Shown in pieces: positions 12,001 to 14,191 of a stretch of 14,191 nt of DNA. The position numbers are program-made. The stretch spans positions 1 through 14,191 of the forward strand of contig JANPJS010000296.1 in NCBI GenBank assembly GCA_031425655.1, in the 5' to 3' direction. The stretch comes from Abditibacteriaceae bacterium. Lineage in GTDB: Bacteria > Armatimonadota > Abditibacteriia > Abditibacteriales > Abditibacteriaceae. Positions within the stretch are counted from its first letter, which is position 1. Every line of letters begins with the position of its first letter.

Positions 12001-14191
12001 GCGCAGCACTTCCTGATTCGTGAGTTTCATTTCTGCAACCTTAAACTCGAATTTTCAGCAAAACCGCGTCTTTCGCGCGCTTTTCGCTGTCCTGCGTTGC
12101 CTAAACGCCGTAAAGTCCCCGGCGTTTCCCCTTTAGTCTACCTGCGAGGGGTGTATTTGATTTTAGCGAAGGGCGGCAAGCTCTCGCGCGGCTTAAATTT
12201 TCCCATAAACGCGCTTCATCGGCTAACCTGATAAATATGCCTGAGATTTTTAAGATTTGCGTTACGAGCCACTTTGAAGGAACGGCCCGCAGGATTTTAG
12301 AAGACACCCCGCCTCATATTGTGAGTTTTGACAAAAACGATTTGGCTTTGGCCGACATCGCGTTTGGACAGCCCGACGTGCAAACGCTGATGCAATCGCC
12401 GTCGCTGCGTTGGGCGCACATTTCCAGCGCCGGTTATACCAACTACGACCGCGACGACGTGCGCGCCGCATTGCAAGCGCGCGGCGCGATTCTCACCACC
12501 AGCTCGCACGTTTTTAATGAGCCATGCGCGCAACACGCCGCCGCGATGATTCTGGCGCAGGCGCGCCAATTGCCGCAATCGTGGCAGGAGCGCGGTCAGT
12601 GGAACGGCGGCGAACGCCGCGCCAACAGCTTTTTGCTCAACCAACAAACGGTGCTTTTTCTCGGTTTCGGCGCCATCGGAGTGCGTTTGGCGGCGATGCT
12701 GACGCCTTTTGGCATGAAAATTACCGCGCTGCGTCGCCAACCAAGCGGTGACGAAGGCATAAAAATCATTGGCGAAGATCAACTCGGCGAAGCGTTGAGA
12801 ATTGCCGATCACGTCGTTAATATCTTGCCGGAAAACGACGCAACGCGCGGCTTCGTTTCCGCCGCGCGATTGGCGCAAATGAAGCGCGGTGCGCGTTATT
12901 ATTCCATCGGACGCGGCTCGACGACCGATCAGGAGGCGCTGCTTGAACTCTTACAAATGGGCCATCTCGGCGCGGCGTATCTCGATGTAACCACGCCCGA
13001 ACCTTTGCCGCCGGAGCACCCGCTGTGGGGTGCGCCCAACTGCTTCATTACGCCGCATTCGGCGGGCGGCCATCAAGGCGAAGATATTCGTTTGGCTTAC
13101 CATTTTTGTGCTAACCTGCGCGCTTTTCAAGCCGGTAGGGGATTAATAGATCGCGTGATTTAATGACCCCGCTTCTGCTTTTAGTCGGCCCGACGGGAAG
13201 CGGTAAAACCGCAACGGCCATCGAATTGTGCCAAATGCTTGATGGCGAAATCGTGTCTGCGGATTCGATGCAAATCTATCGCGGCTGCGACATCGTGACG
13301 GCCAAACCGAGCGCCGCCGAACAAACTGCCGCGCGCCATCACCTGATTGACATTTGCGACCCGCGCGAAACTTATTCCGCCGCACGTTGGGCCGACGATG
13401 CGCGCCGCGCCATTGACGACATTGCTTCGCGCGGAAAAACGCCGATTATCGCCGGCGGCACAGGCTTCTATATTCGCGCGCTGCTTGACCCCGACCTCGT
13501 GGCGCCGGTGCCGCCAAACCCCGAACTGCGCGCTGAACTTGAAACTGAACTGGCCGCGCACGGCAAGCAATGGCTGCACGAAAAACTGCGTTCGCTGGAC
13601 TCTGCCGCCGCCGCGCGTTTGCATTTCAACGATGTGCATCGTGTAATGCGTGCGATTGAAGTGGTGGACGGCGGGAGGCGGACGGCGGGAGGCGGGAGGC
13701 GGGAGGCGGACGGCGGGAGGCGGGAGGCGGGAAGCGGACGGCGGGAGGCGGACGGCAGTCAGCTAAGCGACCAACTGCCTCCTGCCTCCTGCTTCCTGCC
13801 GTCGGTCTTCGGCCTCGCCGTGCCGCGCGAAACGCTTTATCTACGACTCGAAACGCGCGTGGACGCGATGCTGGCAATGGGCGCCTTAGACGAACTGCGG
13901 GGTTTGCTCGAAAGCGGCGTTCCGACTGACGCGCCGGCTTTGCAGGGCGTTGGTTATCGCCAGCTTTTGCCGGCGCTGGATGACCCGTCGCAACTGCCCG
14001 CCGCCGTCGAATTGTGGAAACGCGACACACGCCGCTATGCCAAGCGCCAGATGACGTGGTTTCGCCATCAATTGCCGACGCAATGGTTTGAAATAGATGA
14101 ATCGGAGCCGTCAGACATTGCGCGACAAATCGCGCTGCAATGGCGCGCCGGGCACCACTCAGAACGATAAACGGGAAGGCGGAAAGGGCGG

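Follow-up and report, generated by a model that had tools for sequence, protein, structure and literature searches.

The window, that is, the whole stretch of DNA analyzed, is a 14,191-nucleotide contig (C296) of the 327-contig, 5.98-Mb assembly of an Abditibacteriaceae bacterium, labeled G000 here. The gene under study is miaA, which carries a heptamer-repeat hairpin in frame (Table 1). The insert contains no ORF of its own. Its predicted fold has an energy of -102 kcal/mol (z -7.5), and 0 of 200 shuffles reached this value. The first-pass annotation had placed such a hairpin inside miaA, and our analysis bears it out: TRF finds both arms, and one ORF runs through them.

Table 1. Features of miaA and its hairpin in the window
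Feature	Position	Strand	Evidence or remark
miaA, tRNA dimethylallyltransferase, 335 aa	13163..14170	+	Single ORF spanning the insert; TIGR00174, 255 bits against a cut-off of 148.65, match in two stretches
5' G-rich arm, about 12 heptamer copies (GGCGGGA/GGACGGC), translated GGRRTAGGGRREADGGRREAGSGRREADG	13666..13756	+	TRF period 7, 11.7 copies, plus period 14
Hairpin loop in miaA	13757..13774	+	Loop start resembles the arm end at the same site in G002 (possible relic, by eye)
3' C-rich arm, 3.7 copies of CTGCCTC, translated LPPASCFLP; complementary to the 5' arm	13775..13800	+	TRF; fold z -7.5
Start of a further purine-rich repeat at the miaA stop codon, running off the contig; probably one arm of a hairpin in the spacer	14167..14191	+	Sequence

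MiaA has structural relatives in the PDB (2qgn, 3d3q, and 2zm5), and the loop at the insert site is shorter in the solved relatives. In an AlphaFold model built from 8 sequences, residues 173 to 207 have a pLDDT below 50 and lie between a helix (158 to 169) and a strand (211 to 219). As modeled, the insert occupies a loop that the prediction leaves unordered. Heptamer tracts occupy this loop in 4 of 29 orthologues (G017, G003, G002, and G019), each with a different unit, and none was scored in the other 25. The MiaA orthologues have 4 tracts in 25 kb, an enrichment over the ten other genes counted, which have 8 in 622 kb (p 9e-4). Elsewhere in the window, an island between thrS and lpxD (4190-6913) holds a 15-bp tandem duplication (4190-4221), a 585-aa ORF weakly resembling ResIII/DEAD proteins, and a DUF4160/DUF2442 pair reminiscent of a toxin-antitoxin module.

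We then took a census of period-7 tracts in the genome. Genes were called with a purpose-written dicodon caller, which yielded 4267 genes, missed small atypical four-helix genes, and placed some starts wrongly. G000 has 469 period-7 tracts at our own threshold, compared with 20, 104, 32, and 7 at periods 5, 8, 10, and 11. More than 75 nt inside genes we found 56 of the 469, in 45 genes; codon-shuffled genes yield 0 to 1. Eight weak GC-rich genes were excluded as not arm-type, leaving 37 genes with 48 tracts. The earlier count was 67 of 496 tracts in 50 genes; ours is 45 genes, 37 of them genuine, and the existence of deep in-frame tracts stands.

The host genes named earlier were mostly confirmed when 44 proteins were scanned: RlmN, UvrA, RuvC, Mfd, DnaX, MutL, PriA, RecG, MutS, MutS2, FolP, and MiaA all have NCBIfam matches above cut-off. 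PyrC has such a match below its cut-off. A score-11 tract lies in the 890-aa protein that had been claimed as LeuRS. Long hairpins had been claimed for the inserts in general; 16 of the 37 genes have them, with arms that are paired and fold well, but the other 21 carry a single arm, among them the genes for Mfd, DnaX, MutS, FolP, PyrC, and MoaA.

Most tracts lie between genes. Coding DNA has 11 of them per Mb and the rest of the genome 380, a roughly 30-fold depletion in genes. Therefore, the in-frame copies are rare survivors. A complementary partner accompanies 367 of the 469 tracts, so that many are dispersed short noncoding elements with terminal inverted repeats, as MITEs and Rickettsia palindromic elements (RPEs) are. 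There are about four copies per arm, and the G- or purine-rich arm almost always comes first (partner on the expected side in 181 and 176 cases, compared with 8 and 0). For tracts from other phyla, we read 160 loci, 80 from at least 123 matches listed and 80 from at least 121; the same polarity holds in 29 and 30 of each 80, compared with 1 and 0, among the matches listed. Of 126 spacer hairpins, 86 have a first arm that begins between -10 and +5 relative to the stop codon of the preceding gene, and 80 have an ATG no more than about 10 bases beyond the second arm. Spacer hairpins are frequent in a ribosomal-protein operon (C207). Many N and C termini in G000 are overlapped by arms, which add, for example, the peptide NSKLKTQNSKL.

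The units found in genes differ from those in spacers. In genes, 2 of 16 sense-strand G arms have a stop-bearing unit, and in spacers 102 of 138 do (Fisher p 2e-6). The most frequent unit family is paired in 0 of 6 genes compared with 77 of 83 spacers. Where a stop-bearing arm is retained in a gene, the copy that would give the in-frame stop is a variant. ORFs are free of stops by definition, so this argument leans on frames that are continuous with orthologues at both sides of the insert. The purging of stop-bearing arms from genes makes translation of the inserts probable. A stop-codon constraint on the orientation of TAACTGA repeats was already remarked by MacGregor (PMC4679880). We also looked for conserved genes broken by stop-bearing inserts. 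Among 413 non-deep tracts, 186 of which have any foreign match, there were 8 candidate spans; these were mostly non-collinear or opposite-strand frames, and none was accepted, without closer study.

Relatives at 67 to 78% identity belong to the Abditibacteriaceae. Units had been said to be rewritten at fixed sites, and this is what we found for MiaA, RlmN, UvrA, RecG, Mfd, MutL, and Ppk1. For RlmN, the swaps quoted earlier as peptides are real: among nine close orthologues, four carry tracts of four other units, a fifth carries a different direct repeat, and the remaining four have no evident repeat. The UvrA, RecG, Mfd, and MutL sites were read in five relatives picked for high tract load. 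UvrA site 1 has a similar unit in G005, and site 2 has another unit in G005 and G017. The RecG site has a tract in 4 of the 5 relatives (scores 9 to 15), the fifth locus lacking coverage of the site. The Mfd site has one in 2 of 5, and the MutL site has one in G017. For Ppk1, G000 and G017 have tracts in the same region. The frame breaks elsewhere in uvrA, recG, and mutL of G017 are probably assembly errors. Gradual drift at in-frame sites was rejected as an explanation, since units at the same site are no closer than shuffled ones (2.92 compared with 3.05, p 0.22, 36 pairs).

The same sites recur at greater distance. A UvrA from Syntrophobacteraceae, at 38% identity, carries the same peptide in the corresponding loop, and a Nitrospiria MutL carries a tract in its linker. 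Our search of genome contigs with UvrA gave one close relative among 80. The UvrA inserts map to gaps against 9gxk. In the two proteins mapped on structures, the MiaA model and UvrA against 9gxk, the insertions appear in frame in exposed loops of intact proteins, as they do for MITEs and RPEs.

A small gene lies between the arms at some loci. G000 has 7 TIGR02436 genes, and all of them also match PF05635, over both cut-offs in 7 of 7. The family resembles Avd, according to PMC10053308. Each of the 7 four-helix genes lies between a G arm and a C arm, 5 with scored tracts and 2 degenerate by eye, and each has its own unit. All 7 cassettes lie between or before protein genes, and none in a 23S rRNA helix. 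In relatives, both arms surround 13 of the 28 best four-helix matches, compared with 9 of 300 small control genes. Among the cross-phylum matches listed, a four-helix gene lies within 2 kb of 4 of 160 tract loci, compared with 0 of 150 controls. The four-helix gene at C74:24200-24900 follows an arm of 13 copies and precedes a second, complete hairpin, which may reflect a nested insertion.

The units tie the cassettes to the dispersed tracts. Of the other 457 tracts in G000, 195 exactly match a unit of the genome's own cassettes (permutation p 0.001), and in a control 16 foreign units match 2. The two cassette units that were read by eye match nothing. Among 79 tracts of G017, 0 match the G000 cassette units and 14 match G017's own three (p 0.0004). 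For the remaining 262 of the 457, among them the miaA unit and the AGGGATG family, the assembly contains no cassette that matches exactly. Unit distance drops as cassette protein identity rises (Mantel p 0.001, 28 cassettes), a signal that rests on related and partly same-site cassettes. In 18 of 30, the two arms of a cassette differ by no more than one base, and units change in small steps on both arms.

Full and empty sites could be compared directly. Of 19 cassette loci in relatives, 6 (4 junctions) have flanks that are adjacent in G000. At each of the 4 junctions, G000 has a hairpin without a gene, built from another unit (3 heptamer and 1 nonamer), against a base rate of 7.8%. At the junction with the empty 9-mer hairpin, G007 carries a four-helix cassette. 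Both G000 cassette sites that are readable in G017 have no hairpin there.

We looked for a mover and linked neither a reverse transcriptase nor a Y1 transposase to the hairpins. There is no RVT_1/PF00078 match in G000, which is 97% complete, and the element is in this respect not a diversity-generating retroelement; a bAvd-like match below cut-off occurs in 2 of the 7 four-helix proteins. None of the 6 Y1 transposases in G000 has heptamer flanks, the DDE families lying outside this search. Five of them (C12:4782, C70:3418, C37:30312, C132:3232, and C57:110) have REP-like or IS200-like palindrome flanks unrelated to the heptamer arms. Target-site duplications were sought at 141 hairpins, and shared flank words were as frequent as in shuffled pairs; the arm ends are fuzzy, and short duplications could escape. 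GxxExxY genes (TIGR04256) were rejected as heptamer partners, as their arms are 9- to 10-mers. They form a parallel cassette family of 9 copies, most bracketed by inverted arms of 9- to 10-base repeats (C54:9204, C45:32843, C215:20824, C298:36464, C228:10664, C143:56338, C260:1572, and C126:3949).

The four-helix-bundle cassette, which the first-pass annotation did not name, best explains the repeats. We propose, with a probability of roughly 0.6, that empty derivatives of the cassette are spread or overwritten within the genome, that spacers take most of them, and that a few last in floppy loops, which are reused, as passengers that are translated and decay. In this scenario, each tract would be the arm of a cassette in which a G- or purine-rich heptamer arm, a PF05635/TIGR02436 ORF (23S-IVS protein, Avd-like fold), and a complementary arm follow one another. 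Gene-less copies (arm, short loop, arm) would far outnumber cassettes and mostly fill the spacers from stop to start. A few would land or persist in coding sequence and survive only where a floppy linker receives them without a frameshift or a stop codon. As neutral passengers, the survivors would be translated and would later decay, in many cases until a single arm is left. The same loops, presumed to be tolerant, would be reused, their arms being overwritten by whichever unit the lineage now carries. Overwriting may proceed by reinsertion or by gene conversion among arrays, with slippage spreading a change through both arms. The anatomy, the polarity, the cassette link, the unit matching, the full and empty sites, the stop filter, and the hot spots are observed, whereas translation, neutrality, the copying direction, and an active part for the four-helix protein are inferred.

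A further-reaching version is tentative, and we think it has a limited chance of being right. It holds that PF05635 cassettes form a mobile element that is widespread and has neither a transposase nor an RT of its own. An Avd-like ring protein would recognize its own heptamer arms and drive the copying or overwriting of cognate empty hairpins, rewriting loops of UvrA, MutL, RecG, Mfd, MiaA, and RlmN in many phyla, and in repair motors more than in others.

The repeats could instead be a host-made simple-sequence family that arises by slippage together with gene conversion and template switching. In that case, the four-helix gene would be a hitchhiker that prefers existing hairpin loops and does not spread the empty ones. 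The lack of a linked transposase, an RT, or a target-site duplication in our G000 searches fits this account, as do the many units without a cassette and the stepwise drift of units on both arms. Heptamer overrepresentation is moreover general in bacteria, according to PMC4692102. Unit matching gives no direction, and a common repeat of the host may simply convert the cassettes. However, arm polarity is fixed, there are about four copies per arm, the ORF always lies between G arm and C arm, and the unit sets differ among genomes in step with their cassettes. The GxxExxY genes, with their own inverted arms, also look like gene-specific cassettes. We consider a purely host-made origin unlikely.

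The inserts had been described as lying above all in DNA-repair enzymes. Within G000 this is so: 9 of the 37 host genes are repair or replication equivalogs (p 5e-9 at a class share of 1.6%, 7e-5 at 5%), the 1.6% share being an estimate from 20 kb with tracts, 35 kb without, and 12 kb assumed for genes not located. Moreover, 6 of the 16 paired hairpins sit in repair genes. Conservation in another genus is roughly twice as frequent among host genes (6 of 37 compared with 7.5% of length, in a quarter of G017), and the excess persists among core genes (9 of 24 at a 5.2% share, p 2e-6). No tract scoring 10 or higher occurs in another 18 repair and replication genes of G000 (35 kb), 13 of which were named by motif alone. 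Low expression was rejected as the cause of gene choice, as the codon signal (p 3e-5) fell to p 0.08 after insert codons were masked; codon bias is weak here.

Because the repair category had been drawn after seeing the list, we tested other genes that were fixed in advance. Five repair genes and five long controls, all tract-free in G000, were read in 29 relatives; the SecA control covered 17 of 30 genomes and part of the gene, and the CarB control was the first half only. Repair genes had 4 tracts in 323 kb and controls had 4 in 299 kb, so no repair excess appeared in these relatives. With 8 tracts from related genomes, a 6-fold excess is rejected at p 0.014 and an 11-fold excess at p 0.002; the power is low, and choosing tract-free genes strips hot spots from both sets. 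Many Abditibacteriaceae have SecA open frames of 2100 to 2300 aa (L380-L395), more than twice the usual length, with split HMM matches. Across the family, carB is two unlinked half genes (L148; G000 C130:18778-20313). Some relatives have DnaE frames of 1600 to 1840 aa and UvrB frames of about 1230 aa (L364, L366-L374, L138-L140) with large inserts, possibly inteins.

Two further samples bear on the same claim. In 1.19 Mb (a quarter) of G017, 19 tracts lie in 15 genes, recG being one, and adding UvrA gives 2 repair genes of 16. In the cross-phylum sample, 21 of 44 candidate frames had a Pfam match, 4 were dropped by judgment as lying before the true start, and 2 of the 17 hosts among the matches listed are repair genes (p 0.03 at a 1.7% share, 0.21 at 5%). 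The earlier statement stands within G000, but the advance test did not bear it out.

It could still be that repair genes are targeted or favored as a class, with hairpins tuning expression through RNase III cutting or ribosome pausing, or inserting during damage-induced transcription. The counts in G000 and the cross-phylum p value at a 1.7% share agree with this, and RNase III cuts the Coxiella IVS stem, as PMC4990558 states. However, most orthologues are without an insert, the 18 other repair genes are empty, and 21 of 37 inserts are single arms. Selection on the stems at the RNA level was also not seen: in 194 spacer stems, by rough ungapped pairing, the transcribed strand has no G-U excess (119 G-U and 164 A-C). 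With the advance test, these points make targeting of the class improbable. Several repair motors own recurrent hot-spot loops, and a preference of the whole class would go beyond these data, which leave it some room. In our proposal, the excess in G000 would arise because several large DNA-repair motors own tolerant loops.

Excision of an IVS leaves the RNA cut and not rejoined, which counts against removal of the hairpins from the RNA. That they are removed or bypassed in this way (intron-like, or by translational bypass), leaving the proteins normal, draws on long stems that bring the flanks together and on a precedent of excision in the IVS (PMC4990558), but it is very improbable, since the frame is always kept, stop-bearing arms are purged or altered at the in-frame stop, and many inserts are unable to pair.

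Each ingredient of the proposal has a published counterpart, as heptamer repeats, IVS cassettes, and in-frame palindromes have all been described. Cyanobacterial STRR heptamers occur in frame or in stems in nifJ, rnpB, and the tRNA-Leu intron stem, and the unit class differs by strain at one position; unlike in G000, these are single loci. Closest in build is the 23S rRNA IVS of Coxiella and Leptospira, in which an ORF of the same Pfam lies in the loop of an inverted repeat. The Coxiella IVS has GACAGAT heptamers in variable number before the S23p ORF and undergoes RNase III cutting, and RNA fragments are described for it (PMC4990558). The G000 elements differ in lying in mRNA spacers and, without the gene, inside proteins, with hundreds of empty copies and many units, whereas excision is known for the IVS. 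RPEs are likewise in-frame palindromic inserts in unrelated housekeeping genes, as summarized in PMC10969869. However, an RPE is about 150 bp long with a conserved peptide, and here the arms are tandem heptamers that are tied to a cassette and whose unit changes at one and the same site.

The GGGAATC repeats of Xanthomonas and Nostoc (PMC4692102) and the TAACTGA repeats of Beggiatoaceae (PMC4679880) have about four copies, with the G-rich strand directly after stops and the C-rich strand directly before starts. Few lie in ORFs, and stop codons limit the coding orientation. Unlike ours, these studies treat one unit each and, in the sections available, read it as a G-quadruplex or regulator site, without a cassette link and with host genes random across functional classes; the last point is made for repeat-associated genes in PMC4692102. 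Our literature search, which was thin in older and subscription papers, found no paper that joins PF05635 cassettes to dispersed or in-frame heptamer hairpins, or that reports a repair bias. G000 adds the unit-matching test, the full and empty junctions, the stop filter, and the negative out-of-sample repair test.

Three separate published oddities, namely heptamer excess, ORF-bearing rRNA IVSs, and in-frame palindromes, would thereby become one testable element. The uncharacterized PF05635 family gains a candidate substrate, the arm unit that each protein carries around its own gene. The element would explain recurring low-complexity peptides (SSLIPHP, IPHSAFR, and NSKLKTQ) in proteins of many phyla, as well as a frequent source of contig breaks and wrong starts. 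A preference for repair genes would matter more, and here it comes down to hot-spot loops.
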